Shown in pieces: positions 38,050 through 60,482 of a stretch of DNA of 64,000 nucleotides (position 1 is the first letter of the stretch; every line of letters starts with the position of its first letter). The DNA lies in NCBI GenBank assembly GCA_049510745.1, contig JBEKYR010000007.1, positions 32,001 to 96,000 of the forward strand. The letters are read 5' to 3'. The DNA comes from Verrucomicrobiota bacterium. GTDB taxonomy: Bacteria; Verrucomicrobiota; Verrucomicrobiia; Limisphaerales; Palsa-1400. The position numbers and the translations under genes are program-made. Below the pieces are notes generated by a model. That model did not search any database, had not been told where the DNA came from, and saw nothing but the letters and a program-made list of their open reading frames with translations.

Positions 38050-40896
38050 TTACTTCTTTGGAACCAGGCGCAACAAGGGCCGGGGTTCCTTCAGGATGGG
38101 CTGAATGAAGCCTTGGCGGCCGCCGCCTCGCCCCCCGGAGAGCCGGTCCTTCAATAATTCCAGGCGCGATTCAAAATTCAGCACAGGCTTCGCTCCAAGG
38201 TCGGTGCCCCATACCCACAAGGTCCCGTCCGAGGTCAGGCCAAACCACGTTTCTCCGGCGACCCACACATCGACCCAGTCCGAGCGGGAGCCGATCTGGC
38301 GCCACAAACCCACCCAAGGGCGGCCGGCAGTCCATAAGGTGCCATCAGACCGCACCCGGTCTTGCGTTTGGTACGACACCGAGTGAACGTGGTCCGCGGC
38401 CCAATCCGAACTTATGAAAGAACAAACGGCGCTGGCGCCGGCTTGGGCATTCGGCAAACCAACCCCTGCTTCCCACAATTCACCCGCCCGATTTCGGACC
38501 AGGCCGCCGGCGTCAAGTCCGATCCAATTCGTCTCCGCACAAACCTGTGTCGGGAAGGTCAGGTTCGTGTGGAACCAGAGAGACCCGACCCGCGAACCGG
38601 CCAGACTGCCCCACGCCCACAGCGTTCCGTCGGACCGCAGGCCGAACATCGCTCCGCCCCGGATGGAAACGGCCGTCCAATTGCTCGCGGTTCCGACCTG
38701 AACCCATCGATTGGAATTGGCATGAATGAGCTGCTGGATCGCTATGCCACGGTCATCCCGGTTCCAGAGCGTTCCGTCTTTTCTGAGGGCAATCATGTGA
38801 TTCCAGCCAACGCAAATGTCAGTCCAATCCCGGCCGGGGAACGCCGGCTGGGGATCGTTGTGCATGTTGCCGTAGTGGTAGCCCCATTCCCAGACCGTTC
38901 CATCGGCGCGCAAACCGAGGCAATACGAGCCGTCTCCAGTCGCCTTGACCCAATTGCGGGCGGCGCCGATTTGCTCCGGGACGGCGGCGCGCCGCATCGT
39001 GGGCGGACCGGTCCACCCCCAGCGCCAAAGAGTGCCATCGGGCAGGACCAAAAACACTCCGTTGCGTGGAAGGACGGGAAAGATTCTGACCGGGCCGTTG
39101 CTTTGTGTGATTGACACAAGGACGGGCGGGGGAAATTGGGAACGGGTGCGGGCCAGCACCACGCCGGCCAGCGCCAGCACGGCGGCCAGACAGACGACGA
39201 CCGGCTTGCGGAAACGCGGGGCAACGATGCGCCCGGCGAATCCGACCATAGCCGCCGCCATTTTTCCCGGGAATTGCCGCCAGCGAAAATGCGTCCGCTC
39301 CGGGATGAGCGGCCGCTGCGCCAACTCGCGGAACCTCACGCGCAACGATCTCCAGGCGCGCAGTCCGTAAAAAAGGTCCGCCAGAAGCCCCGTGCCCAGC
39401 CATAGCCCCAGCGTGAAACGCTCGCCCGGCGTCTGGCGCGTCAGGTCCAGCAAGGAACACGCGTTCCAGACGGCCAGGATGCCGGCGAACGCAATCCAAG
39501 GGACGACCAAAATGCGAACGACCGCCGTCATGGTGGCGCGCGTCTGGCTCCGGGCCGTGAGCGCCGCCAGCATGGCCACCCAAATTAACGCCGCCACGTC
39601 CGCCACCAACATGATGACGATGACCAGCAAAGTATAGACTTCCTCGCGCGCGTTGTGCCGGCGGACCATCATTCCGGCGAAGATCAATTCCACGGCCACC
39701 ACGACCAGCAGCGGGCGGAGAAATTGCCGGCGCAAAGCGCGCACCTGGCCACCCAGGATGTCGCCGACCATCAGTGGCGTGACGAGCAACAATTCAAAGG
39801 CGCCGGAGCGGCGGTCTTCACCCAAGCGGTGTCCGGCCTCCAGCGTGATCCAGAGTTTGAAGGTGGAATTGAGGAGCACGGCGACCACAAAATAGGTGGA
39901 TTCGTCCAGCCAAAGGCGGCCCTCCTTAATCCATCCATAGACCCACCAAACCGCTGCCAGCCCCAGGAAGATCCAGACATGGACCGGCTTGAGCCGGGCG
40001 CGCGCCGCCAGCCAGAAGAAGGCGTTGGCGTCCAGCGCTCTTCTGCGGAAGGCGGCTCGTTGGGCCGGGCCGCCGTAATTGAGGAGCGGGCCGAGTTCCC
40101 GCCAACGCCACCGGCCCGACGCCGCCACCGCCGGTTTGTCGGACCAGGCGTGGGGCACAATCGAGCAGGCCAAAAACACAAAGAGCCACGCCAGCAAATG
40201 AGTCAAACCCACCGACCACCAAAAATCCGCCGCCATGGTCGCGTATAAACGGTCGGCGCAGAGGGCAAACGAATACAGGGGGCACAAATAAAAGAGTGGC
40301 GGCAGAAACACATTTGTGGCCGCAGCCAGCGCGAGGCCGCAGCCCGCCAGCCCGCCCACCACCAGCGCAAAGAGGAAGAAGTTCGCCGCCATTGCCGCCC
40401 GGTATTCCCGCGTCGCCGCCGATGCCAGGATGCCGATGGCCAGGGAAAGAAAGAAGGTGTTCGCCAGGACCAACACCATCCGCCAAAGTTCGCCGTTGGT
40501 CATCCCGCCCAACAGCAGCGGGATTGCCAGGACGGGGAAGACGGCCAGCAACGCGTAAAAGGCCGACAGCGAGGTTGCCACGAGCTTTCCCAAAACGACA
40601 TCGTAACCTTTCAAGTCGGTCAGGAAGAGCAGCCCCAGGGTTCCTTCCCGTTTTTCCCGGCTCAGGCAGTCGGCGGTCGAGCTTCGACCCACAGTCAAGC
40701 AAAAGAGAATCGACAGGCCGGACAATCCCCAGAAGAGCACCGTGCCGAGTTTGGCCTGGGGTTGGAAGAAGTTGACCAGAGCGGCGGCCACGCCGATGAG
40801 CACGGCCAGGAAGGCGACCCCGACCCGACTCCAATAGGTGACGGGGCGGCGCGAACCTTCCCGCAACTCCCGATCCACAATGGGCAGGAATCTCAT
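38050..40896 (-). CDS. ABC-2-type permease-like membrane protein fused to C-terminal RCC1-like repeats
   Basis: LPIVDRELR, ADCLSREKREGTLGLLFLT, EDRRSGAFELLLVTP; repeated L..DGTLW.WG in the C-terminal third. Confidence 0.8.
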   Translation of the reverse strand: MRFLPIVDRELREGSRRPVTYWSRVGVAFLAVLIGVAAALVNFFQPQAKLGTVLFWGLSGLSILFCLTVGRSSTADCLSREKREGTLGLLFLTDLKGYDVVLGKLVATSLSAFYALLAVFPVLAIPLLLGGMTNGELWRMVLVLANTFFLSLAIGILASAATREYRAAMAANFFLFALVVGGLAGCGLALAAATNVFLPPLFYLCPLYSFALCADRLYATMAADFWWSVGLTHLLAWLFVFLACSIVPHAWSDKPAVAASGRWRWRELGPLLNYGGPAQRAAFRRRALDANAFFWLAARARLKPVHVWIFLGLAAVWWVYGWIKEGRLWLDESTYFVVAVLLNSTFKLWITLEAGHRLGEDRRSGAFELLLVTPLMVGDILGGQVRALRRQFLRPLLVVVAVELIFAGMMVRRHNAREEVYTLLVIVIMLVADVAALIWVAMLAALTARSQTRATMTAVVRILVVPWIAFAGILAVWNACSLLDLTRQTPGERFTLGLWLGTGLLADLFYGLRAWRSLRVRFRELAQRPLIPERTHFRWRQFPGKMAAAMVGFAGRIVAPRFRKPVVVCLAAVLALAGVVLARTRSQFPPPVLVSITQSNGPVRIFPVLPRNGVFLVLPDGTLWRWGWTGPPTMRRAAVPEQIGAARNWVKATGDGSYCLGLRADGTVWEWGYHYGNMHNDPQPAFPGRDWTDICVGWNHMIALRKDGTLWNRDDRGIAIQQLIHANSNRWVQVGTASNWTAVSIRGGAMFGLRSDGTLWAWGSLAGSRVGSLWFHTNLTFPTQVCAETNWIGLDAGGLVRNRAGELWEAGVGLPNAQAGASAVCSFISSDWAADHVHSVSYQTQDRVRSDGTLWTAGRPWVGLWRQIGSRSDWVDVWVAGETWFGLTSDGTLWVWGTDLGAKPVLNFESRLELLKDRLSGGRGGGRQGFIQPILKEPRPLLRLVPKK

Positions 40897-40997
40897 GCTT
40901 GGCAGGGGAAGTTTTGAAGATTGGCCCGGCGATGTCAACGCGGGGCGGCGCCGAAAATGATTGCCAACTTCCCGCGCCGGGGGCATTGGAGAACCCG

Positions 40998-41662: not shown

Positions 41663-41690
41663 TTGACAGCCGCAACGGCTTGGTTATACT
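41663..41690 (+). promoter_or_regulatory. Near-consensus sigma70 promoter of the repeat-protein gene
   Basis: TTGACA-16 bp-TATACT ending 20 bp upstream of ATG 41711. Confidence 0.65.
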
Positions 41691-41710: not shown

Positions 41711-44700
41711 ATGAAACCGCTGATACGCCGCTGCATCGGGTTGCTCGCCCTCCAACTCGCCTCCACCCTTCACGCCCAGCCCATTCTGATCCAGCCGCAG
41801 AACCAGACCATCGGCGGCACCAGCGTCAGCAATCTGCGCATCCTCAAGCAATCGGCCGACGGCACGGAAACCATCTTGATGGTCGATTTTATATACGACG
41901 GCGTCAACGGGCCTTCCGCGCGGGTCTTGCCCGTTATCACCGACAAAAAGGTGCCCAACGTCTCCAGTTGGTTCGGGGCGGACCCCGTCACCATTGGCAG
42001 CGGCCACGGCACCATCTCCTTGCGCGTCAAGTTTTTCAATGATGATCCCGGCGTGCCGCCGCAGGTCACCACCGATCACGTCCGCATCATGATTATGTCG
42101 GACACCGGCAACGCTGTTATCAGCCAGGGCATTTTCTCCAGGACCATCAAGTGGGGCAGTGCCACTGCTCCGGTTGCCACCGCGCCGCCGCCGCCCGCCG
42201 CTACCGCGCCTCCGCCCCAACCCCAAGACCAAGCCAGCCTCCGCGCCCTGGCGGAAGCCCAGCGCATCGCGGAAGAAAAGGCCAGAGCCGAAGCCAAAGC
42301 CCAGCAGGAAGCCAGGCTCAAAGCCGAAGCCGAAGAAAAAGCGCGCCAGGAAGCCGAAGCCAAGCGCCTGGCGGAGGAAAAAGCCAGGGCCGAAGTCGAA
42401 GCCAAAGCCCGCGAGGAGGCCAGGTTAAAAGCGGAAGCAGAAGAAAAGGCCCGGCAAGAAGCCGAAGCCAAACGATTGGCCGACGAAAAAGCCAGGGCCG
42501 AAGCCGAAGTCAAGGCCCGCGAAGAAGCCCGGCTCAAGGCCGAAGCCGAAGAACGGGCGCGCCAGGAAGCCGAAGCCAAGCGGCTGGCCGAAGAAAGAGC
42601 CAAAGCCGAAGCCGAAGCCAAAGCCCGCGAGGAAGCCCGACTCAAGGCTGAAGCCGAAGAACGGGCGCGCCAGGAAGCCGAAGCCCGGCGATTAGCCGAG
42701 GAAAAGACCAAGGCTGAAGCCGAAGCCAAAGCCCGCGAAGAAGCCAGACTAAAAGCGGAGGCCGAAGAAAAAGCGCGCCAGGAAGCCGAAGCCAAGCGGC
42801 TGGCCGAAGAAAAGGCCAAGGCCGAAGCCGAAGCCAAAGCCCAGGAGGAGGCCAGGCTCAAAGCCGAAGCCGAAGAGAAGGCCCGCCAGGAAGCCGAAGC
42901 CAGGCGGCTGGCCGAAGAAAAGGCCAAAGCTGAAGCTGAAGCCAAAGCCCGCGAGGAAGCCCGGCTCAAGGCCGAAGCCGAAGAAAGAGCCAAGGCCGAA
43001 GCCGCAGCCAAACGACTGGCCGAGGAAAAAGCCAAGGCCGAAGCCGAAGCCAAGGCCCGCGAGGAAGCCAGATTGAAAGCCGAAGCCGAAGAAAGAGCGC
43101 GCCAGGAAGCCGAAGCCAAGCGGCTAGCCGAAGAAAAAGCCAAAGCCGAAGCCGCTGCCAAAGCCCGCGAGGAAGCTAGATTAAAAGCCGAAGCCGAAGA
43201 AAAAGCGCGTCAGGAAGCCGAAGCCAAGCGGCTGGCCGAAGAAAAAGCCAAGGCCGAAGCCGAAGCCAAAGCCCGGGAAGAAGCCAGATTAAAAGCGGAA
43301 GCCGAAGAAAAGGCCCGGCAAGAAGCCGAAGCCAAGCGGTTGGCCGACGAGAAAGCCAAAGCCGAAGCCGAAGCCAAAGCTCGCGAAGAAGCCAGACTAA
43401 AAGCGGAAGCGGAAGAAAAAGCCCGCCAGGAAGCCGAAGCCAAGCGGCTGGCCGAAGAAAAGGCCAAGGCCGAGGCCGAAGCCAAAGCTCGCGAGGAGGC
43501 CAGGCTCAAAGCCGAGGCGGAAGAAAAAGCCCGCCATGACGCCGAAGCCAAGCGGCTGGCCGAAGAAAAAGCCAAGGCCGAGGCCGAAGCCAAAGCGTTG
43601 GTTGAAGCCAAAGCTCGTGAAGAAGCCAAAGCCCGCGAGGAAGCCAGGCTCAAAGCCGAAGCGGAAGAAAAGGCCCGCCATGAAGCCGAAGCCAAGCGGC
43701 TGGCCGAGGAAAAAGCCAAGGCCGAAGCAGAAGCCAAAGCCCGCGAAGAAGCCAGATTGAAAGCCGAAGCCGAAGAAAAGGCCCGGCAGGAAGCCGAAGC
43801 CAAGCGGCTGGCTGAAGAAAAAGCCAAAGCCGAAGCCGAAGCCAAGGCCCGCGAAGAAGCCAGATTGAAAGCCGAAGCCGAAGAAAAAGCGCGCCAAGAA
43901 GCCGAAGCCAAGCGGCTGGCCGAAGAAAAAGCCAAGGCCGAAGCCGAAGCCAAGGCCCGCGAAGAAGCCCGGCTCAAGGCCGAAGCCGAAGAGAAGGCGC
44001 GCCAGGAAGCCGAAGCCAGGCGGCTGGCCGAAGAAAAGGCCAAGGCCGAAGCCGAAGCCAAAGCTCGCGAAGAAGCCCGGCTCAAGGCTGAAGCCGAAGA
44101 AAGAGCCAAAGCCGAAGCTGCAGCCAAACGATTGGCCGAAGAAAAGGCCAAGGCCGAAGCCGAAGCCAAGGCCCGCGAAGAAGCCAGATTGAAAGCCGAA
44201 GCCGAAGAAAAGGCCAGGCAGGCCGCAGAAGCCAAGCGGCTGGCCGAGGAAAAAGCCAAAGCCGAAGCCGAGGCTAAAGCCCAGGAGGAAGCCAGATTAA
44301 AAGCGGAAGCCGAAGAAAAAGCGCGCCAGGAAGCCGAAGCCAAACGGCTGGCCGAAGAAAAAGCCAAAGCCGAGGCCGAAGCCAAGGCCCGCGAGGAAGC
44401 CCGACTCAAGGCCGAAGCCGAAGAGAAGGCCCGCCAGGAAGCCGAAGCCAAGCGGCTGGCCGAGGAAAAAGCCAAGGCCGAAGCCGAAGCCAAGGCCCGC
44501 GAAGAAGCCCGATTGAAGGCGGAAGCCGAAGAAAAGGCGCGCCACGAGGCGGAGGCCAAACGGCTGGCCGAAGAAAAGGCCAAGGCCGAAGCCGAGGCCA
44601 AACGGTTGGCCGAGGAAAAAGCCAAAGCCGAAGCCGAGGCCAAAGCCCGCGAAGAAGCCCGCCTCAAGGCCGAAGCCGAGGAGAAGGCGCGCCAGGAAGC

Positions 44701-45784
44701 CGAAGCCAAACGCTTGGCCGAAGAAAGAGCCAAGGCCGAGGCCGAAGCCAAGCGACTGGCCGAAGAAAAAGCCAGAGCCGAGGCCGAAGCCAAGCGGATT
44801 GCCGAGGAAAAAGCCAAGGCCGAGGCCGAAGCCAAACGGATTGCCGAGGAAAAAGCCAAGGCCGAGGCCGAAGCCAAGCGGATTGCCGAGGAAAAAGCCA
44901 AGGCCGAGGCCGAAGCCAAACGGATTGCCGAAGAAAAGGCCAAAGCCGAGGCCGAAGCCAAGCGCCTGGCCGAAGAAAGGGCCAAGGCAGTGGCCACAGC
45001 CCCGCCGGCCCAAGCCGCTCCGGCCCCCAGGAAAGCGGCGTTTGCCATTTCTTCAAAGGCCCGCAGCAAAGTCACCAACATTGACGTTGTGAACCGGAAC
45101 ATCGACCGCACCGAGATGACCATTGCGGTCGAGTATCAATACGCCAAGGATGATGCTTTGCCGAGAATGGGTGTCGATCTGGCCAGCACGGACGAGCCGC
45201 TGGCCTCCGACTGTTTCACCTGCGCTCCCGTCGATATTGGCAAGGGCAGCCGCAATTTCGTCATGTTCCCTGTCAAACTGAACGCCGCCGCCGCCGCGCA
45301 AACCTTCAAACGGGCCACCCTGCCGACCGACAAGGTCTGGGTTTACCTCACCGACGACGCCGGCTTGAAATCCTACATTTTCCAGGGAACCATGCTCCTG
45401 GTCTGGCACATGCCCGGCGGCGCCGCGGCCGCCCCCGCCGCCGCCACTTCCCGCAACACGGTGGAAATCGACAATTTCAAACAGAACGACTATTTCAGCG
45501 GCTACATCACGGTCAAGTACAACCTTATCCCCGCCGGCGGCAAACTCCGCCTCCGCATCCAGGACTCCTCCAACCCCGCCGTCGCCGACTACTTCGCTTC
45601 CGACGACATCCCGGTGAAAGCGGGGCCGGGCCTGCAATTGATCAAGATCGCCGTGCCCAAGGAATCGAAGTCGCCGGACGTGTTTAACGCCGACACCATC
45701 GAAGTCCAACTGCTCGACGACAAGGACGCGGTCCTGACCAGCGCCAAGAAGCAAACGCCGATGAGCTGGGCGAAGCCGAAATAA
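41711..45784 (+). CDS. Secreted protein with ~910-aa Ala/Glu/Lys/Arg helical repeat between three homologous globular domains (TolA-like composition only)
   Basis: Signal peptide MKPLIRRCIGLLALQLASTLHA|Q; 36-aa repeats; Pro-rich hinges. Confidence 0.88.
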   Translation: MKPLIRRCIGLLALQLASTLHAQPILIQPQNQTIGGTSVSNLRILKQSADGTETILMVDFIYDGVNGPSARVLPVITDKKVPNVSSWFGADPVTIGSGHGTISLRVKFFNDDPGVPPQVTTDHVRIMIMSDTGNAVISQGIFSRTIKWGSATAPVATAPPPPAATAPPPQPQDQASLRALAEAQRIAEEKARAEAKAQQEARLKAEAEEKARQEAEAKRLAEEKARAEVEAKAREEARLKAEAEEKARQEAEAKRLADEKARAEAEVKAREEARLKAEAEERARQEAEAKRLAEERAKAEAEAKAREEARLKAEAEERARQEAEARRLAEEKTKAEAEAKAREEARLKAEAEEKARQEAEAKRLAEEKAKAEAEAKAQEEARLKAEAEEKARQEAEARRLAEEKAKAEAEAKAREEARLKAEAEERAKAEAAAKRLAEEKAKAEAEAKAREEARLKAEAEERARQEAEAKRLAEEKAKAEAAAKAREEARLKAEAEEKARQEAEAKRLAEEKAKAEAEAKAREEARLKAEAEEKARQEAEAKRLADEKAKAEAEAKAREEARLKAEAEEKARQEAEAKRLAEEKAKAEAEAKAREEARLKAEAEEKARHDAEAKRLAEEKAKAEAEAKALVEAKAREEAKAREEARLKAEAEEKARHEAEAKRLAEEKAKAEAEAKAREEARLKAEAEEKARQEAEAKRLAEEKAKAEAEAKAREEARLKAEAEEKARQEAEAKRLAEEKAKAEAEAKAREEARLKAEAEEKARQEAEARRLAEEKAKAEAEAKAREEARLKAEAEERAKAEAAAKRLAEEKAKAEAEAKAREEARLKAEAEEKARQAAEAKRLAEEKAKAEAEAKAQEEARLKAEAEEKARQEAEAKRLAEEKAKAEAEAKAREEARLKAEAEEKARQEAEAKRLAEEKAKAEAEAKAREEARLKAEAEEKARHEAEAKRLAEEKAKAEAEAKRLAEEKAKAEAEAKAREEARLKAEAEEKARQEAEAKRLAEERAKAEAEAKRLAEEKARAEAEAKRIAEEKAKAEAEAKRIAEEKAKAEAEAKRIAEEKAKAEAEAKRIAEEKAKAEAEAKRLAEERAKAVATAPPAQAAPAPRKAAFAISSKARSKVTNIDVVNRNIDRTEMTIAVEYQYAKDDALPRMGVDLASTDEPLASDCFTCAPVDIGKGSRNFVMFPVKLNAAAAAQTFKRATLPTDKVWVYLTDDAGLKSYIFQGTMLLVWHMPGGAAAAPAAATSRNTVEIDNFKQNDYFSGYITVKYNLIPAGGKLRLRIQDSSNPAVADYFASDDIPVKAGPGLQLIKIAVPKESKSPDVFNADTIEVQLLDDKDAVLTSAKKQTPMSWAKPK
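42250..44990 (+). repeat. Coding tandem repeat: about 22 x 108 bp, then about 6 x 42 bp
   Basis: Unit AEAEAKAREEARLKAEAEEKARQEAEAKRLAEEKAK; terminal unit AEAEAKRIAEEKAK. Confidence 0.95.
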
Positions 45785-45843: not shown

Positions 45844-46095
45844 ATGAAATCCGACCAGGAGTTAATTGAGGAAATCCAGAGGGAACTGGCGCCCGGCTCG
45901 AGCCTGGGCCGGCAGATCGGCGAGCTGGCTTCGCGCCTGGAGGCGGCTCAAGCGAAGGCGGAGGCACTGCAGCGCGAGAACGCAGCCTTGAAAGCAAAGT
46001 TGCAGGCCGCCGGCCACAAGGAATCCGACATCAGCCAGGAAACCCTTCGCGGCATCGCCGACGTGATGCGCTCCGGGGCGCGGCCCTCGGATTGA
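45844..46095 (+). CDS. Small coiled-coil hypothetical protein
   Basis: 83 aa; IGELASRLEAAQAKAEALQRENAALKAKL heptads. Confidence 0.65.
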   Translation: MKSDQELIEEIQRELAPGSSLGRQIGELASRLEAAQAKAEALQRENAALKAKLQAAGHKESDISQETLRGIADVMRSGARPSD

Positions 46096-46213
46096 GCGCG
46101 CCGCCACCCGCGGGAGCGGCGTGGTTTTTCCGGGATCGAACTGCTGAACCGCTGATGAGGATGACGAATCGCCTTGAGACTTCCGCAAAAACGTCTATGT
46201 ACCAGCGCTGTTG

Positions 46214-48034
46214 ATGGACCTGATTCACTTAAGTCTCAAACGCGTTGTTGTCGGCAATTACAAAAGCATCAAGCGCATTGAGTTGGATGACTTGAACAAC
46301 ATTGCGCTCCTGATGGGACGGAACAACGCCGGCAAATCCAATTGCCTGGACGCGTTCAAATTTCTCTCCGAAGCCTCCGTGAGCCTCGCGCGCGCCGTCG
46401 CGGTCCGCGGCAGCAGCCTGACCGATGTCATCCATCGCAAACGCGCTGACGAAACGATTGAGTTTCTGCTCGAGTTCGTTCCCGTTCCCCGGAAACGGAT
46501 CGAATTCATCCACCGCCTCTTTGCCGGGAATCAGCACATGTCGGCGGCCGACGCGATCAATTCCGGTTTTCTCTCCTCCTTGATCCTCAAAGTCGCGCTG
46601 GCCCAGGAGAGCTTCAGCGAGGAACTGTCCACTCCCAATGTGGTGGGGGACCGGCCCTTCGTGATTTTTTCCATCCAGGGGACGCCGCACAGCGTGGAGG
46701 CGTCCTGCGGGCAATTGGAGGCCCTGTGCAAACGATGCGGCGGCGAATTGCCGTCCGAGCCGGTGCCGCTGGAGACGAAAGCGGAGGGGTTGGAGCCGTA
46801 CCGATTGCGACTGGGGCGGCCGGAGGCGGCGGGAGCGTTTCCGGTTTCGCAGGAACTGGCCGAGGCGGTCTGGCAACAGTTCGCCCATCTGGAATGGGCC
46901 GATCCGTTGCGCAAAATGCCCACCTCCTCCCCCATCCTCGGCCAGCACACCCTGGCGGCCGATGTGTCCAATCTGCCCGACGTCTTGCACTGGCTCTACA
47001 ACAACAAGCCCAAACAATTCCGCAAGATCGAATCCGAAGTCTCGAAACTGGTCCCGAATCTGGGCAAGCTCTACACCCCGACCCTCCAGAACGCCGCCAC
47101 CCTGGGGCTGATCGACGATGCCGACGAAGACCTGGTGTATTCCATCAACCAGATGAGTTTCGGCACCCGCTCCGTCGTGGCCATCATCGCCAAGATCATC
47201 CTGGCCCAGCCGGGCGCCTGGGTCTGCATCGAGGAACCGGAAACCTACCTTCATCCCAAAGCCCAACTGGGCCTGTTCCACTTCCTGCGCGAGGAGGCGA
47301 AAAACAAACGGATTTTTGTCACGACCCATTCCACCGCCATTGCCGCCTCGTGCCCGCTCCCCTCCCTTTTCATCGTGCAGCGGGACGCCGGGCAATCGAC
47401 CGTGGCCTTGCCGGTCACGCCGGCCGAGGCTTTCGAGGTCATCGAGCAATTGGGGGTCAAGCCTTCCTTCAGCTTCGAGGCGGATGCGATTGTGTTTGTC
47501 GAAGAGGCCGATCATGTGGCGATCTTCGAGGCCTGGGCGCGGAAATTTCAATTCCACATCAAGGTGCAGTTTCTGGACGCGGAAGGCGCCTGCACGCTGC
47601 ATTACCACGCCAATACCCGCATCGCCTTGAGCAAGTTCGTCCATACCCTGGTCTTCGCCGTCTTCGGCAACGGCAGCGAGATGGCCAGCCGCACCCGGAA
47701 AACGATCGTCGAACAATTGCAACTGCCGCCGGAGCAGGTGGTCACGATGGACTTCCCGGAACTGGAAGGCTACCTGCTCGATCCGAAGGCGATTCTCCGC
47801 GCCTTTCCCGCCGTCACCCTTCCGCCGGCGGAGTTGGAAGCGCTCCTGGACCCGGCCCGGACGATGCCGGACCAGAAAAAGGCCTTGAGTGAATTGTTGA
47901 CACAATTCCGAATCGGCGAATACGACAGCCGCCTGGGCGCGCGCATCGCTGAAGCGATGGACGAACTGCCTGCGTGCGTCCGGCAATTGTTCGAGCAGAT
48001 TGACGCCAGCTCCAAACCGTATTGGAAGATTTGA
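46214..48034 (+). CDS. OLD-family-like ABC ATPase with degenerate TOPRIM domain
   Basis: NYKSI, GRNNAGKSN, MSFG, IEEPETYLHP, VTTHS; then IVFVEE.., VFGNG, ELEGYLL. Confidence 0.8.
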   Translation: MDLIHLSLKRVVVGNYKSIKRIELDDLNNIALLMGRNNAGKSNCLDAFKFLSEASVSLARAVAVRGSSLTDVIHRKRADETIEFLLEFVPVPRKRIEFIHRLFAGNQHMSAADAINSGFLSSLILKVALAQESFSEELSTPNVVGDRPFVIFSIQGTPHSVEASCGQLEALCKRCGGELPSEPVPLETKAEGLEPYRLRLGRPEAAGAFPVSQELAEAVWQQFAHLEWADPLRKMPTSSPILGQHTLAADVSNLPDVLHWLYNNKPKQFRKIESEVSKLVPNLGKLYTPTLQNAATLGLIDDADEDLVYSINQMSFGTRSVVAIIAKIILAQPGAWVCIEEPETYLHPKAQLGLFHFLREEAKNKRIFVTTHSTAIAASCPLPSLFIVQRDAGQSTVALPVTPAEAFEVIEQLGVKPSFSFEADAIVFVEEADHVAIFEAWARKFQFHIKVQFLDAEGACTLHYHANTRIALSKFVHTLVFAVFGNGSEMASRTRKTIVEQLQLPPEQVVTMDFPELEGYLLDPKAILRAFPAVTLPPAELEALLDPARTMPDQKKALSELLTQFRIGEYDSRLGARIAEAMDELPACVRQLFEQIDASSKPYWKI

Positions 48035-54685: not shown

Positions 54686-57600
54686 TTACGGCGTTATGAG
54701 CATGGCGCGGTAAAACTGGTCGGGATTGGCCGTGTTGGTGTCGGTGAAAGACCAGTTGCCGTTGGCATCGGCAGCGTTGGTGACCAGAGGCTGCCAGTTT
54801 ACGGGCGGTGTGAGGTTGGCCGCCACCTGCAGCACATACGAATAGCCCGGCGTGCCGGTGAATTGAAACTGCACGCCTTGTCCGGCGCCCAAGGCGGCGC
54901 TCAAGGGTGGCAAAGCCACGTTCAGAGTGGCTATGCTGCTCGTGACGCTGCCGTAAGGGCTTGTCACCACCACGTCGTACATTCCAGCACTGCCCCCGGT
55001 TACATTCGACAGCAGGAGTAGCGGGGTTTGATAAAGAACCTCGCGGATGCGGTTATTGTGCATGTCCGCAATGAAAACGTCCCCGGCCGCATTCACGGCC
55101 ACGCCAATGGGAAGGGCCAGTTCGGCATCGACAGGCCATCCACCATCGCCGAGAAAACCCTCCGTCCCATTGCCTGCCAGTGTGGTGATTGTGCCCGTGT
55201 TTGCGACTTTGCGGACTCGGAAATTACCGCCGTCGGCGATAAACAGATTGCCGAACCCATCAACGGCCACAGCGTACGGATGGTTCAGGGCGGCATTGGT
55301 CGCCGCACCGCCGTCACCTGAGAATCCCGCAGTCCCATTGCCCGCGACGGTGGCAACAAGGCCGTTGGTTCCAATCTGCCGAATTCGAGAATTCCCTAAG
55401 TCCGCGATGAATAAATTGCCGGAGCTATCAAAGGCGATGCCCCAAGGACCATGAAACGTGGCATTGGTGGCCGGGCCGCCATCGCCCGAAAAACCGGGCG
55501 CGCCCGTGCCTGCCACGGTGGTGATGGAGCCGCTGGCGCTCACTTCCCGTATGCGGTTGCTGGACGTATCCGCAATGAACAGATTGCCCAGACTGTTTAC
55601 GGCCAGTCCACGAGGAGAGGAGAGACTGGCATTGGTCGCCAAGACCCCATTGCCGGAGGAGTTGGTTCCGCCACCCGCCGCGGTGGTGATGATGCCGTTG
55701 GTTCCGACTTTACGAATCACATCATTTTCCAAATCCACGATGAACAAGTTGCCAAGATTGTCCGCCGCGACAGCAACAGGTTCCGACATGGTTGCGTTGG
55801 TTGCCGGGCCTCCATTGCCGGTATAACCATACGATCCGTTTCCTGCCACAGTGCTGGTAATGCCATTGGTCCGTATCTCACGAACGAGGTCGTTTCCCAC
55901 ATCGCAATAAAGGAGATTGCCTGAAGGGTCCAGCGCCACTGCGATAGGCTCCCGAATGCAGGCATTGACGGCCGCGCCTCCGTCCCCGATGCCACCGCCT
56001 GCAACCGTATTGATGACGCCGCCAACTTTTGTCTGACGCACACGACCGTTGTCGGTGTCCGCAATGATAACGTTCCCCAGAGAGTCCACCGCCAGGCCTT
56101 GAGGATAACCCAATTCCGCGTTGACCGCCGGGCCGCCATCGCCCGAATAGCCGCCCACTCCCCCCCGCCCCGCGACCGTGGTGATGATCCCATTGGTTCC
56201 GACTTCGCGGATGACGCTATTATTGCCATCGGCAATGAACAGGCTGCCGGAGGCGTCCACGGCCACAGCCGTCGGATAGTAGAGAGAGGCGTTGGTCGCC
56301 GGGCCGCCGTTTCCAGAGTAACCTCCTGAGCCGCCGTCGCCGGCCACCGTCGTGATAATGCCGTTGGTGGCCACCTCCCGGATGCGCTGGTTATATTGAT
56401 CCGCGATAAACAGATTGCCCGAGGCGTCCAGCGCCAACCCGCCAGGATAAGACAAGAGGGCGTTGGCGGCCGGGCCGCCATCGCCGGAGAATCCATTCGT
56501 GCCATTGCCCGCCACCGTGGTAATAATGCCGTTGGCAGCCAACTTACGGATGCAGTTGTTGCCGCTGTCGGCGATGAACAGGTTGCCGTAAATGTCCACG
56601 GCCACGCCGGAAGGGCCGTTGAGTTCGGCATTCGTGCCCGCCCCGCCGTCGCCAAAATATCCATACTTGCCGTTCCCTGCTATCGTAGTGATGATGCCAT
56701 TGGTGTTCACTTGGCGGATGCGGTTGTTGAGCATATCCGCTATGAACAGGTTGCCGAGGTTGTCCACCGCCACGGCAGCGGGAAGAGCCAGGCTGGCACT
56801 GGTGGCTGCGCCGCCGTCACCCGAGTAGCTCCCGAAACTGTCGTAGGTCACCTTTCCCGCCACCGTCGTGAGAATGCCGTTGACCGCCACTTTGCAGATT
56901 CGGTTATTGTACTGGTCAGTAACAAATAGATTTCCCATGGCGTCCATCGCCACGGCGCATGGATCATCGAGCATGGTATTGGTCGCCCAACCGCCCGTGT
57001 CCTCGCCCGCAACGGTGATGATGACGGGATTGGGAAAACTCACGCCGTTGAGTTGCCACTGGTAAGTGAACGGGCCGGTGCCGGAAACCGCGACGGTGAA
57101 CGAGGCCGTGCCCGCCGCAAGCGCCGTTTGGCTGGCAGGTTCGGAGTCAATGACCGGCGCCAATCCAACGGTCAAAGCCGCCACGGCGCTGGTCACGCTG
57201 CCGTAGTTGTTCGTGACCACAACGGTGTAATTGCCGGCTTCATTGGTGGAAACGTTTGTCAGAGTCAAAATTGAGTCCGTGGCGCCGCTTAGGTTCGTGC
57301 CATCAAACTGCCACTGATATGACAAAGGGTCTGTCCCGTCCGCGGTGACAGTGAAAGCGGCACTGTAGCCAATCCCGGCAGCCTCGGACGCCGGCTGGAC
57401 TGTGATCGAGGGCGGATACAACACGGTCAAGGTGGCCACCGCGCTGGTGACGCTGCCGTAAGGACCCGTCACGATGACGTCGTAATTGCCCGCGTTGTTG
57501 AAAGCCACATTGTTCACGAGAAAGGCCGGGCCTTGAAGGATCACTTTGGCAATTCGAGGTGGCTCAACCACACTTTGCGTCATAAAGATGTTCCCATAAG

Positions 57601-60295
57601 CGTCCGCCGCCAATCCGATCGGATCTCCCAAATAGGCGTTCGTTGCATTTTGGCCAACGAAGCCGCTTTCGTATCCGCCGCCGGCGACGGTCGTGATAAT
57701 TCCGTTGGTTGACACCCGCCGGATGCGCCTGTTCTCTCCATCTGCTATGAACAAATTGCCGTAAATATCCAAAACGACGTCGTAAGGGTGGAAAAGCGAA
57801 GTGTTGGTGGCTGCAACGCCATCGCCGGAGTAGCCATCCTTTCCGTTTCCGGCCACAGTGGAAATAATGCCGTTGGTCCCGACTTCGCGGATGCGATTGT
57901 TCCCGGAATCGGCAATAAAAAGATCGCCACTGCCGTCAAGCGCCACGCCCGAGGGGACGTTGAGCTTGGCGCTGGTTGCCGGACCGCCGTCGCCCGCGTA
58001 GCTTCCCACGCTCGGGTAACTGGGGCCGCTTCCGGCAACGGTGGTAATGATCCCGTTAGTGGCAACCTTCCTGATCCGGTTGTTGTAGGTGTCGGCAATG
58101 AAAAGCTGGCCCGTCGCGTCCACCGCCACGGACTCGGGCGCATAGAGCCGGGCGTTGGTCGCCTGGCCGGCGTCGCCGGTGTAGCCGTTGGTTAGGTACC
58201 CGGCAAAAGTCGTAATGATGCCATTGGTATTGACCTTGCGGATGCGGTCATTGTCAGTGTCAGCAATAAACAGGTTTCCGAGAGCGTCCGCGGCCACTCC
58301 ATCAGGCATGTTCAGGCTGGCGTTGGTCCCCTGGCCGCCATCGCCGGAATACCCGCGCCTGCCCTTTCCCGCCACCGTGGTAATAATGCCGGCGGCATTC
58401 ACCTTGCGGATGCAATTGGTTCCGAAGTCGGCGATAAAGACGTTGCCGTGTGTGTCCACGCTGAGATGGGCGGGGTTCGTTAATTCGGCGTTGGTCGCCG
58501 GCACTCCGTCACCGCTATAGCCCGCCGCGCTGGAGCCTGCGAACAGCGTGATAATATGGTTGGGCAGATTGGTCCCATTGAACTGCCATTGGTAGGTGAA
58601 AGGGCCTGTGCCGGAAACCGCGACGTCGAACGTGGCGCTGCTCCCGAGGAGGTTTGTCTGGTTCGACGGTTGAACGACAAGGGCGGGCGAATATCCGACC
58701 GCCAGCGTCGCCACGCTGCTGGTGACGCTGCCATACGCATTGGTAATGACGACGGAATAGGAGCCTTGATCCGAAAGCTCAGTTGGGTCCAAGGACAACG
58801 TCGCCGTCTGCGATCCGTTGATGCGGCTGCCATCGATTATGTTCGTCCTATCGAGTTCCCATTGGCAGATCAGTGGCGGGGTTCCAATCGCCACCACCGT
58901 GAGACTATTGCTGCTCCCCACGATCACCATGCTGCTTGACGGTTGAGTTGTAATGGCGGGCGATGAGAGAACGTTTAGTGTCGCGACAGTACTGGTGACG
59001 CTTCCCGCGACCGACGTGATAATCACCTCATAAGATCCTTCATCAGCCCACGTGACGCTGTTGAGCAAAAGCCCTGGCCACCAACCGACCGCGCGGATGC
59101 GCATGTTGCTCTGATCGGCAATAAACACGTTGCCGACGGTGTCCACTATCACGCCTGATGGATAGTTCAGCGCCGCGGCAGTCGCCGGTCCGCCGTCGCC
59201 ATAGTAGGCGCGATTCTCGTTTCCCGCCACGGTGGAAATGATGCCATTGGTCCCTACTTTGCGGATACGGCTGTCGATAGAATCCGCAATATAAAGATTG
59301 CCGGCCCCATCCACAGCGACCCCCACTGGATTATCCAAGGCGGTATTGGTAGCCGGCACGTCATTCCCGTAAATGAGGCCGCCATTGCCGGCGACCGTTT
59401 CGATAATGCCGTTGGTACCGACTTTTCGGATGCGGGAGTTATCAGTATCAGCAATGAAGAGATTGCCATAGGCGTCCACGGCCACGCCATAGGGATTGCT
59501 CAACCCGGCATTGGTAGCAGGGCCGCCATCGCCCGAGAAATCTATGTCCCCGAAACCTGGTGGGCTACTGCCTGCGACAGTCGTGATGACGCCGCCGGTC
59601 GTGAACGCTCTGATTCGATTGTTGCCCGTATCCGCTATGAACAGGTTGCCGTTGGGGTCCATTGCAATGGCCGAGGGAACGCTGAATTCCGCGTTCGTGG
59701 CCGCGCCGCCATCGCCGGAAAAGCCGTTGGTGGTCGTCCCCGCCACTGTTAAGATAATCCCATTGGTCAACACCTCGCGCACGCAATTATTACCCGTATC
59801 CGCAATAAACAGGTTGCCGAAACCGTCCACCACCACGCCCGCCGGGCCGTTGAGTTCGGCGTTGGTCGCTGCGCCGCCGTCACCGCAATAGCCGTTGGTG
59901 CCATTGCCCGCAAAGGTGGAGATAAGCCCGTTGGACCCGACCTTGCGAATGCAACCGTTGCCGGAATCCGCGATGTAGAGATTGCCGGATGCATCGCGGG
60001 TGAGGCCTGAAGGCAAGTTCAAACTGGCATTGGTGGACTGATCGCCGTCACCGGAATAGCCCTCTGTCCCATCACCTCCAACTGTCATGATGGTCTGCGG
60101 CAGGTTGGCGCCGTCAAATTGCCATTCATAACCCAATGGACCGGTGCCGGAAACGGCCACGGTCAGCATCGCGTTGCTGCCGGCAAAAACGGTCTGGTTG
60201 GTGGGTTGTTGTGTAATCGCGGGCGTCGATTGCCCGCGCGCCATTCCCGCCGCAAAGAGCCACAAGCCAAAAAGGGTGAGGATTGTCCTTTTCAT
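54686..60295 (-). CDS. Large secreted NHL-repeat/Ig-domain surface protein
   Basis: Signal peptide; many GDGG.ATNA.L..P.GVAVD..GNLFIAD..N.RIR units; Ig motifs YQWQF.GTNL and GNYDVIVT..YGSVTS; C-terminal FYR domain. Confidence 0.93.
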   Translation of the reverse strand: MKRTILTLFGLWLFAAGMARGQSTPAITQQPTNQTVFAGSNAMLTVAVSGTGPLGYEWQFDGANLPQTIMTVGGDGTEGYSGDGDQSTNASLNLPSGLTRDASGNLYIADSGNGCIRKVGSNGLISTFAGNGTNGYCGDGGAATNAELNGPAGVVVDGFGNLFIADTGNNCVREVLTNGIILTVAGTTTNGFSGDGGAATNAEFSVPSAIAMDPNGNLFIADTGNNRIRAFTTGGVITTVAGSSPPGFGDIDFSGDGGPATNAGLSNPYGVAVDAYGNLFIADTDNSRIRKVGTNGIIETVAGNGGLIYGNDVPATNTALDNPVGVAVDGAGNLYIADSIDSRIRKVGTNGIISTVAGNENRAYYGDGGPATAAALNYPSGVIVDTVGNVFIADQSNMRIRAVGWWPGLLLNSVTWADEGSYEVIITSVAGSVTSTVATLNVLSSPAITTQPSSSMVIVGSSNSLTVVAIGTPPLICQWELDRTNIIDGSRINGSQTATLSLDPTELSDQGSYSVVITNAYGSVTSSVATLAVGYSPALVVQPSNQTNLLGSSATFDVAVSGTGPFTYQWQFNGTNLPNHIITLFAGSSAAGYSGDGVPATNAELTNPAHLSVDTHGNVFIADFGTNCIRKVNAAGIITTVAGKGRRGYSGDGGQGTNASLNMPDGVAADALGNLFIADTDNDRIRKVNTNGIITTFAGYLTNGYTGDAGQATNARLYAPESVAVDATGQLFIADTYNNRIRKVATNGIITTVAGSGPSYPSVGSYAGDGGPATSAKLNVPSGVALDGSGDLFIADSGNNRIREVGTNGIISTVAGNGKDGYSGDGVAATNTSLFHPYDVVLDIYGNLFIADGENRRIRRVSTNGIITTVAGGGYESGFVGQNATNAYLGDPIGLAADAYGNIFMTQSVVEPPRIAKVILQGPAFLVNNVAFNNAGNYDVIVTGPYGSVTSAVATLTVLYPPSITVQPASEAAGIGYSAAFTVTADGTDPLSYQWQFDGTNLSGATDSILTLTNVSTNEAGNYTVVVTNNYGSVTSAVAALTVGLAPVIDSEPASQTALAAGTASFTVAVSGTGPFTYQWQLNGVSFPNPVIITVAGEDTGGWATNTMLDDPCAVAMDAMGNLFVTDQYNNRICKVAVNGILTTVAGKVTYDSFGSYSGDGGAATSASLALPAAVAVDNLGNLFIADMLNNRIRQVNTNGIITTIAGNGKYGYFGDGGAGTNAELNGPSGVAVDIYGNLFIADSGNNCIRKLAANGIITTVAGNGTNGFSGDGGPAANALLSYPGGLALDASGNLFIADQYNQRIREVATNGIITTVAGDGGSGGYSGNGGPATNASLYYPTAVAVDASGSLFIADGNNSVIREVGTNGIITTVAGRGGVGGYSGDGGPAVNAELGYPQGLAVDSLGNVIIADTDNGRVRQTKVGGVINTVAGGGIGDGGAAVNACIREPIAVALDPSGNLLYCDVGNDLVREIRTNGITSTVAGNGSYGYTGNGGPATNATMSEPVAVAADNLGNLFIVDLENDVIRKVGTNGIITTAAGGGTNSSGNGVLATNASLSSPRGLAVNSLGNLFIADTSSNRIREVSASGSITTVAGTGAPGFSGDGGPATNATFHGPWGIAFDSSGNLFIADLGNSRIRQIGTNGLVATVAGNGTAGFSGDGGAATNAALNHPYAVAVDGFGNLFIADGGNFRVRKVANTGTITTLAGNGTEGFLGDGGWPVDAELALPIGVAVNAAGDVFIADMHNNRIREVLYQTPLLLLSNVTGGSAGMYDVVVTSPYGSVTSSIATLNVALPPLSAALGAGQGVQFQFTGTPGYSYVLQVAANLTPPVNWQPLVTNAADANGNWSFTDTNTANPDQFYRAMLITP

Positions 60296-60482
60296 GCTTG
60301 GGCTATCCTTGGGCAATTTCGTAGCTGCTTCAAGAAAGATCCAGTTGAAAAACGCACCATCCCTTGTCGTTTGAGGCGCAGAGGATAAGTAGGTTCAGGC
60401 GTCCTTCCGCAGCGCCTCGCTTCGTCGCCTTGGAATGTGACAGAGTTTAATTGAACGTGACAATCTGAATTGTCCGCGGACA

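Follow-up and report, generated by a model that had tools for sequence, protein, structure and literature searches.

What does a bacterium do with a protein in which a rod of more than nine hundred residues separates domains that resemble one another? The question is raised by the window analysed here, a 64,000-nucleotide (nt) stretch of a Verrucomicrobiota genome (assembly GCA_049510745.1, contig JBEKYR010000007.1, positions 32,001 to 96,000; the genome is G000 below). Its open reading frame (ORF) 41711-45784 on the forward strand encodes a protein of 1357 amino acids (aa), referred to as the rod protein. The protein consists of a signal peptide, a domain N, a rod free of proline and glycine, and two further domains, C1 and C2; its gene is single-copy in G000. 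Our answer, held with somewhat less than even confidence, is that it may be a constitutively expressed, Sec-exported and soluble envelope protein, most likely periplasmic, which acts as a self-assembling elastic cross-linker. The features of the gene are as follows.

41663..41690, forward strand: sigma-70-type promoter, TTGACA-16 nt-TATACT, 11/12 (from the sequence; conserved upstream of homologues)
41711..41776, forward strand: predicted Sec/SPI signal peptide, aa 1-22, cleavage between LHA and QP, no lipobox (by eye and simple rules)
41789..42160, forward strand: domain N, aa 27-150, Ig/FnIII-like beta-sandwich, with WFGADP and FFND as the predicted C1-binding face (profiles, models)
42161..42223, forward strand: proline/alanine hinge, aa 151-171 (sequence)
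42224..45001, forward strand: single-alpha-helix-type rod, aa 172-1097, 926 aa, made up of 22 repeats close to 36 aa long plus 8 of 14 aa (sequence statistics)
45002..45040, forward strand: second proline/alanine hinge, aa 1098-1110 (sequence)
45041..45427, forward strand: domain C1, aa 1111-1239, homologous beta-sandwich, with the first strand (VVNR) and the RNF strand as the predicted N-binding face (profiles, models)
45452..45784, forward strand: domain C2, aa 1248-1357 and stop, homologous beta-sandwich, without confident contact to N (profiles, models)

An initial annotation of the window had aligned N and the two C-terminal domains by eye. The relationship holds in profile-profile comparison (HHalign probabilities of 97.6% for N-C1, 95.1% for N-C2 and 96.2% for C1-C2) and is weak in pairwise BLAST (N-C2 E 5e-5, N-C1 no match, C1-C2 E 0.41); on their profiles, the three domains are homologous to each other. 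AlphaFold2 models, with predicted local distance difference test (pLDDT) values of 92.6 for N and 93.7 for C1-C2, are beta-sandwiches with only short helices, and all three domains are predicted with high confidence to fold as Ig/FnIII-like sandwiches. The predicted TM-score (pTM) of 0.60 for C1-C2 suggests that the relative position of these two domains is not fixed. Neither unrelated ends nor TolA-III/TonB-C ends, the outcomes against which the initial annotation had warned, were found, the domains being homologous and all-beta, and TolA-III/TonB-C folds being absent among the listed fold matches for N, C1 and C2. The top fold match of C2 (VIA) is a porphyran-binding module (Z 10.3, root-mean-square deviation 2.7 Å, 99 residues aligned). 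The 8wae-type carbohydrate-binding module (Z 10.3 for C2 and 9.4 for N, 7-15% identity), on which no paper was found in the open-access PMC/bioRxiv literature, is tied with HAP2 domain 3 (Z 10.0, deviation 3.5, 104 aligned) and GH2 Ig domains. Matches of this kind are generic, and no function can therefore be read from the fold. Pfam, NCBIfam and PHROGs yielded no family into which the terminal domains fall, a search of PDB sequences with the N profile gave no match, and the plasmid and phage collections held no match; in the ESM Atlas only unnamed clusters were found (Nitrososphaerota and Acidobacteriota), which at 0.84-0.89 lie under the 0.9 level and are leads only. C2 has been lost in G004 and P0064. 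On this comparison N plus C1 is the minimal unit, and C2 is a candidate ligand-binding domain.

The three domains are predicted to do more than share a fold: N docks on C1 through conserved motifs in complex models. ESMFold2 gave an ipSAE of 0.75/0.74/0.72 for N-C1, as against 0.00 for the best of three controls, and the runs have at least 78% of contacts in common, with a partner pLDDT of at least 81. The ipSAE mark is reached by 116 of 157 solved complexes and by 2 of 215 mismatched pairs, and is only a rough guide here, our own alignments having been used. In the modelled interface WFGADP and FFND of N lie against two strands of C1, the first one (VVNR) and the one with RNF, and C2 makes no confident contact. 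The interface columns of C1 are more conserved than the rest of that domain (0.73 vs 0.54, p=0.001). A natural test is offered by nine loci that encode OPX/Wza-like exporters with a signal peptide, in which N stands alone in front of Poly_export and SLBB domains, with no C1 in the chain. These N domains keep 35% of the conserved interface residues, compared with 60% of other conserved positions and 56% of other polar, glycine or proline positions (p=0.026 for the latter), and N domains of rod proteins at equal divergence keep the interface at 69-77%. Such decay of the clasp motifs where N sits alone supports the clasp. Two proteins, P0030 and P0076, have C1 without N; the two C1 copies of P0076 keep 9 and 11 of 13 interface residues, compared with 17 and 15 of 28 others, which is a weak hint at binding in trans. 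Mean-field direct coupling analysis (131 sequences, effective number 39-84) is uninformative either way, since it amounts to noise (predicted contact pairs have a mean z of 0.06) and is without power (0 of the top 20 N-C1 pairs lie in the interface, 0.66 being expected).

The rod that separates N from C1 extends over 926 aa, a little longer than the roughly 910 aa of the initial annotation, which was right that it is free of proline and glycine and flanked on both sides by VATAPP (aa 155 and aa 1094). It is composed mainly of alanine (314 residues), glutamate (267), lysine (144), arginine (108) and leucine (50), so that 34% is alanine, 56% is charged and 6% is LIVMF. Pairs of opposite charge, which had been noticed as E-K/R pairs fitting a single helix, are found 154 times at i+3 and 389 times at i+4, as against 22 and 21 like-charge pairs, and the net favourable score of 500 compares with -1 +/- 23 (maximum 86) in 500 shuffles. 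The dominant charge period falls within 6-9 in 54/54 segments of the rod and is about 7.2. The apolar helical moment (98-103 degrees) is 0.062-0.081 vs 0.083 in shuffled sequences and thus not above them, the moment of LIVMF only is slightly over shuffles (0.045 vs 0.038), and of the best heptad a/d positions LIVMF occupy a mean of 18%. Because of the salt-bridge excess, the charge period of about 7.2 and an apolar moment that does not exceed shuffles, the rod looks like an alanine-rich single alpha-helix (SAH), without an apolar stripe, rather than a coiled coil; the statistics reveal no heptad seam of the kind that the coiled-coil alternative calls for. At 0.15 nm per residue its contour would be about 139 nm. 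Elsewhere in the genome a single long SAH-like stretch was found, of 132 aa in a 1048-aa frame (G000:C3:5785-8928, reverse strand).

The rod is built from 20 units of exactly 36 aa, one of 34 aa and one of 48 aa (22 in all), plus 8 units of 14 aa, in agreement with the count first given. All 20 DNA units differ, by 6-26 nt per 108, and are only about 85% alike; among 2534 codon differences 2028 (80%) are synonymous, compared with 23% of sites, so that the array is selected as protein and the amino-acid sequence of the rod is under purifying selection. The suspicion that the array might be an assembly artefact does not hold in its simple form: because all units differ and the longest exact DNA repeat is 71 nt, the array is old enough to assemble, and a linker of 832 aa is also found in G012, a genome in 5 contigs. 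Contigs of four peat metagenome runs cover 29-30 of 30 bins of the array and none spans it, the count of 22 being that of this assembly. The observation that 36 residues make exactly 10 helical turns is a coincidence of this copy. Homologues have dominant repeat periods such as 34, 27, 41, 32, 46, 60, 24, 53, 16, 14 and 6, and this free variation rules out a conserved helical phase.

Rod length is even less constrained than repeat period. Among 131 unique N-C1-C2 homologues the N-C1 linker ranges from 14 to 960 aa (median 277; that of the window protein is the longest), and in contrast the C1-C2 linker keeps within 4-30 aa. Of these linkers 119 are long and helical-type, seven are long and less helical (one of them acidic and proline-rich) and five are under 80 aa. 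Acidic proline-rich or low-helix linkers are found in L033, P0035 and L088; in L033 (6688-8928, genome G030) the salt-bridged helix is replaced by an acidic (net -70), proline-containing 71-aa repeat. The variation is seen between species as well as between genera, with linkers of the same genus up to 7-fold apart (123 aa in G004 vs 832 in G012, 212 in G014 vs 780 in G019, 315 in G016 vs 878 in G011). The initial annotation proposed a molecular ruler, tether or cross-linker of tunable length. The ruler part fails: linker length is uncorrelated with domain II of the true TolA of the same genomes (Spearman -0.07, n=14 of 17 genomes), and a ruler of periplasm width is ruled out. Since TolA domain II measures 119-218 aa in the 14 genomes whatever the rod length, the periplasm appears to be an ordinary one, which the rod does not measure; the rod is not a ruler. 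The tether or cross-linker part gains support from the predicted clasp, in a form whose length is not tuned. The homologues constitute a natural length series (14-960 aa) in which the length limit of a single helix, and switching between cis and trans binding by the linker, can be studied.

Location can be judged from export signals and fusions. A hydrophobic h-region is present at the N-terminus of 114 of 120 homologues (3 of 120 have a lipobox-like motif) and no transmembrane (TM) segment was found in the rod protein, as the initial annotation had stated for its cleavable signal and missing anchor. Its third statement here, that the gene has a near-consensus promoter of its own, agrees with the TTGACA-16-TATACT site; promoter-like sites (at least 9/12 within 110 nt upstream) precede 27 of 41 homologous loci, compared with 21 of 820 shuffles, and this conservation suggests that the protein is not scarce. 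In five kinase fusions (the Ser/Thr kinases P0037, P0059, P0070 and L114, and the cyclase-kinase P0076) the module comes after a single TM helix, as it does in the nSTAND1 NTPase P0030 and, as a distant relative, in the TIR protein P0188. Kinase-fused N domains occupy two places in the tree, by inspection; a search with the TIR-fused outlier found only P0188 itself. All fusion topologies have the module on the outer side of the inner membrane. This speaks for a location in the periplasm and for a ligand that is worth sensing, and the rod protein is most likely periplasmic. The OPX clade with the N-terminal unnamed Ig-like domain comprises L109, L111-L113, L115-L118 and P0181-P0187. In L110 (1676-5437, reverse strand, G467) a 1254-aa ORF joins a chain-length-determinant region (PCP/Wzc-like), N, a proline-rich linker and an OPX/Wza-like exporter. 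In L113 the PCP and N-OPX are encoded separately, by neighbouring genes that overlap, and a second OPX comes next.

The cross-linker reading can now be set out. Sec would export the protein and the signal peptide would be cleaved, N, C1 and C2 would fold as homologous Ig-like sandwiches, and N would dock on C1 through the conserved motifs. The E/K/R/A rod, probably a monomeric single helix to judge by its statistics, would separate the domains and not measure. The effective concentration of N at its own C1 was simulated for a worm-like chain with flexible hinges, with the SAH persistence lengths of 15 and 22.4 nm given in PMC9527754. It is about 1.7 mM at 30 aa, about 0.1 mM at 60 aa and 0.3-5 uM at 120-926 aa, and the modelled root-mean-square span of the 926-aa rod is 60-70 nm. 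By arithmetic, some 25-50 molecules make 1 uM in a periplasm of an assumed 25 nm in a cell 0.7-1 um across. With its own C1 at only about 0.3-5 uM and so few molecules giving 1 uM, a long rod would favour clasping in trans over clasping in cis, and in proteins with rods of at least 120 aa N would, on this calculation, mostly clasp the C1 of another molecule. The products would be either antiparallel dimers, each end of which bears a head of N, C1 and C2 in full, or chains joined head to tail along the envelope. The heads may bind an envelope glycan or protein, candidates being peptidoglycan and nascent exopolysaccharide (EPS), and the rod would act as a low-force spring. Such cross-links would be elastic because SAHs, in the experiments described in PMC4183817, unfold below 30 pN at constant force and then refold.

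A bolder version is doubtful. It would have a self-assembling net or cable in the Limisphaerales-type envelope, made of single-helix springs of up to about 140 nm that are Ig-clasped head to tail, an analogue of spectrin or alpha-actinin. By setting the effective concentration, the helix would act as a natural switch: with a short linker, as in the receptor ectodomains, the protein would be a closed monomer, and with a long one a polymer. Free N domains could be sensed by those kinase or STAND receptors that have an unpaired C1. If the clasp does work in trans, it would be a new design of mechanical network in a Gram-negative envelope, and would provide protein engineering with a genetically encoded spacer of 10-140 nm and an orthogonal docking pair.

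Several observations weigh against a trans-clasped cross-linker. The complex model does not separate cis from trans binding and yields no affinity. For N, conservation in the interface columns is not significantly above that of its other columns (0.68 vs 0.61, p=0.11). Among the OPX fusions L109 retains the interface (0.69), and it is lost in two kinase fusions (0.46) despite the presence of C1. The nine OPX cases are not independent, as they probably descend from one fusion event. Linkers of 14-31 aa are found in 5 of the 131 homologues, where docking would be in cis, so that family members need not all polymerise. Being alanine-rich and 56% charged, compared with about 76% in the myosin SAHs of PMC5378345, the rod may be less stiff than assumed. 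The fold matches (best Z 10.0-10.3 among many at 8-9.5, none clear of the rest) do not reveal a ligand, no conserved neighbour that would point to a pathway was found in 61 locus groups, and the gene is patchy (17 of 41 relatives, 68 of 401 genomes of the order).

The alternative that survives best, although we regard it as unlikely, is a clasp in cis. N, C1 and C2 of one chain would form a single binding or sensing head as in the kinase ectodomains, and the helix would be a tolerated insertion, a looped-out bulky or elastic appendage whose length drifts almost neutrally. The order N-C1-C2 is kept with linkers of 14-19 aa (kinase fusions) and 31 aa (P0020, P0177), the 7-fold variation within genera and the acidic proline-rich or low-helix linkers fit neutral drift, and in the case of a scarce protein even a 926-aa loop would be closed by tight binding, at an effective concentration of 1-2 uM. 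However, 119 of the 131 linkers are long and helical-type, purifying selection on the repeat would be needless for a neutral loop, the modelled concentration, about 1.7 mM for a 30-aa linker, is down to 0.3-3 uM at 120 aa, and the conserved near-consensus promoter argues against scarcity.

An extracellular matrix or cell-cell cross-linker, secreted past the outer membrane and with heads that bind exopolysaccharide or neighbouring cells, is improbable. Its model would be RbmA, the FnIII biofilm scaffold of Vibrio cholerae, a soluble protein of tandem FnIII-like sandwiches for which cross-linking is proposed, and which has a Sec signal and leaves by type II secretion in the account of PMC4551309. 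RbmA is at rank 6 of the Foldseek matches (E 7e-5, TM-score 0.29), amid many generic Ig matches. The porphyran-binding module as top match of C2, the fusion of N to polysaccharide-export proteins and a 139-nm contour that is large for a periplasm can be added, as can the fibrillar matrix around aggregates of one Limisphaera strain (which may or may not carry the gene) described in PMC13608581; the same source reports a diderm envelope in Limisphaera. On the other hand, each fusion puts the module on the periplasmic side, the structural matches are generic, and an EPS or secretion gene was never found as a conserved neighbour in the 61 locus groups, no search aimed at type II secretion genes having been made. 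There is no sequence match to RbmA, which is a rod-less compact homodimer, and no EPS cluster stands by the rod gene; the rod protein is only loosely RbmA-like.

Poorer still are the prospects of a reading in which N and C1 do not dock and the three domains bind independently, mounted on a rigid ruler or tether of tuned length that spans two structures. The architecture and the SAH statistics fit a tether, and the coevolution analysis, which has no power, did not recover the predicted interface. Against this stand the predicted N-C1 complex with its clean controls, the interface decay in orphan N domains, a length that is unrelated to TolA domain II and highly variable among kin, and a root-mean-square span of 60-70 nm, not 139 nm, at persistence lengths of 15-22 nm. 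A TolA-like energy transducer or a coiled-coil stalk is highly improbable: the rod scores 96.3 bits (TIGR02794 tolA_full cut-off 59.45), its one NCBIfam match of note, and several homologues carry the JGI label 'membrane protein involved in colicin uptake', but nothing outside the low-complexity rod contributes to the match, a TM anchor is lacking, the domains at both ends are modelled as all-beta, a separate tolA lies beside pal on contig C3, and the apolar moment at or below shuffles and the 18% filling of the best a/d positions by LIVMF speak against a coiled coil.

The rod protein does share with TolA an Ala/Glu/Lys-rich helical linker in an envelope protein, which is how the rod passes TIGR02794. 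It differs in its cleavable signal-type N-terminus (TolA has an uncleaved TM helix with an SHLS motif), in all-beta domains at both ends instead of an alpha/beta TolA-III/TonB-C domain at the C-terminus, in the absence of a tolQR-tolB-pal context, and in a rod of 926 aa compared with the 110-335 aa given for TolA domain II in PMC12204202. By anchor, predicted C-terminal fold and context alike, it is not a TolA, as the initial annotation had held for both TolA and TonB, and a recurring mis-annotation is thereby corrected. The genuine tolA-tolB-like-pal locus of G000 lies at C3:42635-45332 (L149) behind tolQ- and tolR-like ORFs; its TolA has a proline-rich domain II of about 163 aa and scores below the TIGR02794 cut-off. 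The TolB_N model gives no score in G000, and the TolB-like ORF is recognised by position between tolA and pal and by size.

With the SAHs (ER/K) of myosin VI/X, caldesmon and INCENP the rod has in common dense i+3/i+4 salt bridges, a charge period of about 7.2, few apolar residues, no proline or glycine and a position bridging folded domains. Unlike the myosin type it is 34% alanine and 56% charged. PMC5378345 puts the mean length at about 75 aa and the longest SAH of a myosin at about 200 aa, so that with 926 aa the rod exceeds several-fold the SAHs and TolA linkers covered by PMC5378345 and PMC12204202. Unlike the SAHs named above, it belongs to a protein that is apparently exported and whose ends are predicted to clasp one another. 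Periscope proteins (SasG, Rib, Sgo_0707), as described in PMC8201768, likewise have tandem DNA repeats and a stalk of variable length that separates functional ends. Their stalk is made of tandem folded domains, whereas that of the rod protein would be one helix of 14-36-aa segments; its DNA units are only about 85% alike, homologous domains stand at both ends and no wall or membrane anchor (TM segment or lipobox) was found, though a binding domain might provide anchorage. In the sense defined in that source it is not a Periscope protein. The protein may work in the manner of a spacer-tethered binding pair. Proteins of the alpha-actinin/spectrin type are antiparallel cross-linkers, and an antiparallel clasped pair of rod proteins would equally be a symmetric two-headed cross-linker with a span set by the rod; there is no homology, the rod would be a single helix, and assembly would be through a clasp of terminal Ig-like domains.

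Matches are found in 17 of 41 relatives. In the order, 68 of 401 genomes match at E<=0.001 and 56 of these, by hand count, reach E<=1e-20; the 56 include three in which only an OPX fusion was seen and one with only a kinase fusion, and the weaker matches are mostly rod-only. A further 400 genomes of the phylum, nearly all from other orders, gave no match. Five very repetitive weak matches and one Ig/cadherin protein (P0079, P0082, P0083, P0086, P0087, P0092) were excluded as unrelated before counting. The 41 loci from the genome collection are all from metagenome-assembled genomes, 33 of them labelled Verrucomicrobiota, four of these Limisphaerales or Pedosphaera. Typical family members in records of other phyla (L038, L041, L066, L073) are likelier to be mislabelled or mis-binned than transferred. 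No description of the family was found in open-access PMC/bioRxiv texts, supplements aside, and the domain family and its architecture are thus unannotated in a lineage (Verrucomicrobia) that is abundant and mostly uncultured in soil, peat and freshwater. Some copies are interrupted: L079/L052 (G602-type locus) have an in-frame stop in N, L119 (G502) consists of N, a stop and a C2 fragment, and L121 (G769) is an ORF with N alone. Pseudogenes or errors of assembly may account for them.

The neighbours of the rod gene in the window are an SRAP gene and an AAA_15/AAA_21 ATPase gene, with tolA and pal elsewhere, on contig C3, in accordance with the initial remark that tol-pal neighbours are lacking. 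No neighbour is common to more than 7 of the 61 locus groups, and those that recur are housekeeping genes of kin; the rod gene reads as a stand-alone gene with its own promoter, which this context supports. A longer TTG-started frame from 40961 was rejected as the gene start, as it overlaps the SRAP gene and homologues begin at the signal peptide. Directly after the rod gene lies an 83-aa coiled-coil-like ORF (45844-46095, forward strand), possibly co-transcribed, with a terminator-like hairpin at 46108-46124; it stands beside none of the fetched homologues. The ATPase (46211-48034, forward strand) is 607 aa long with an uncharacterised C-terminal part, and has a close homologue near the rod gene in L023. 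Further away are an ABC-2-type permease fused to an RCC1-like repeat domain (38050-40986, reverse strand) and a secreted-looking protein of 1876 aa (54686-60316, reverse strand) in which Ig-like and NHL-like beta-propeller repeats were recognised by eye.

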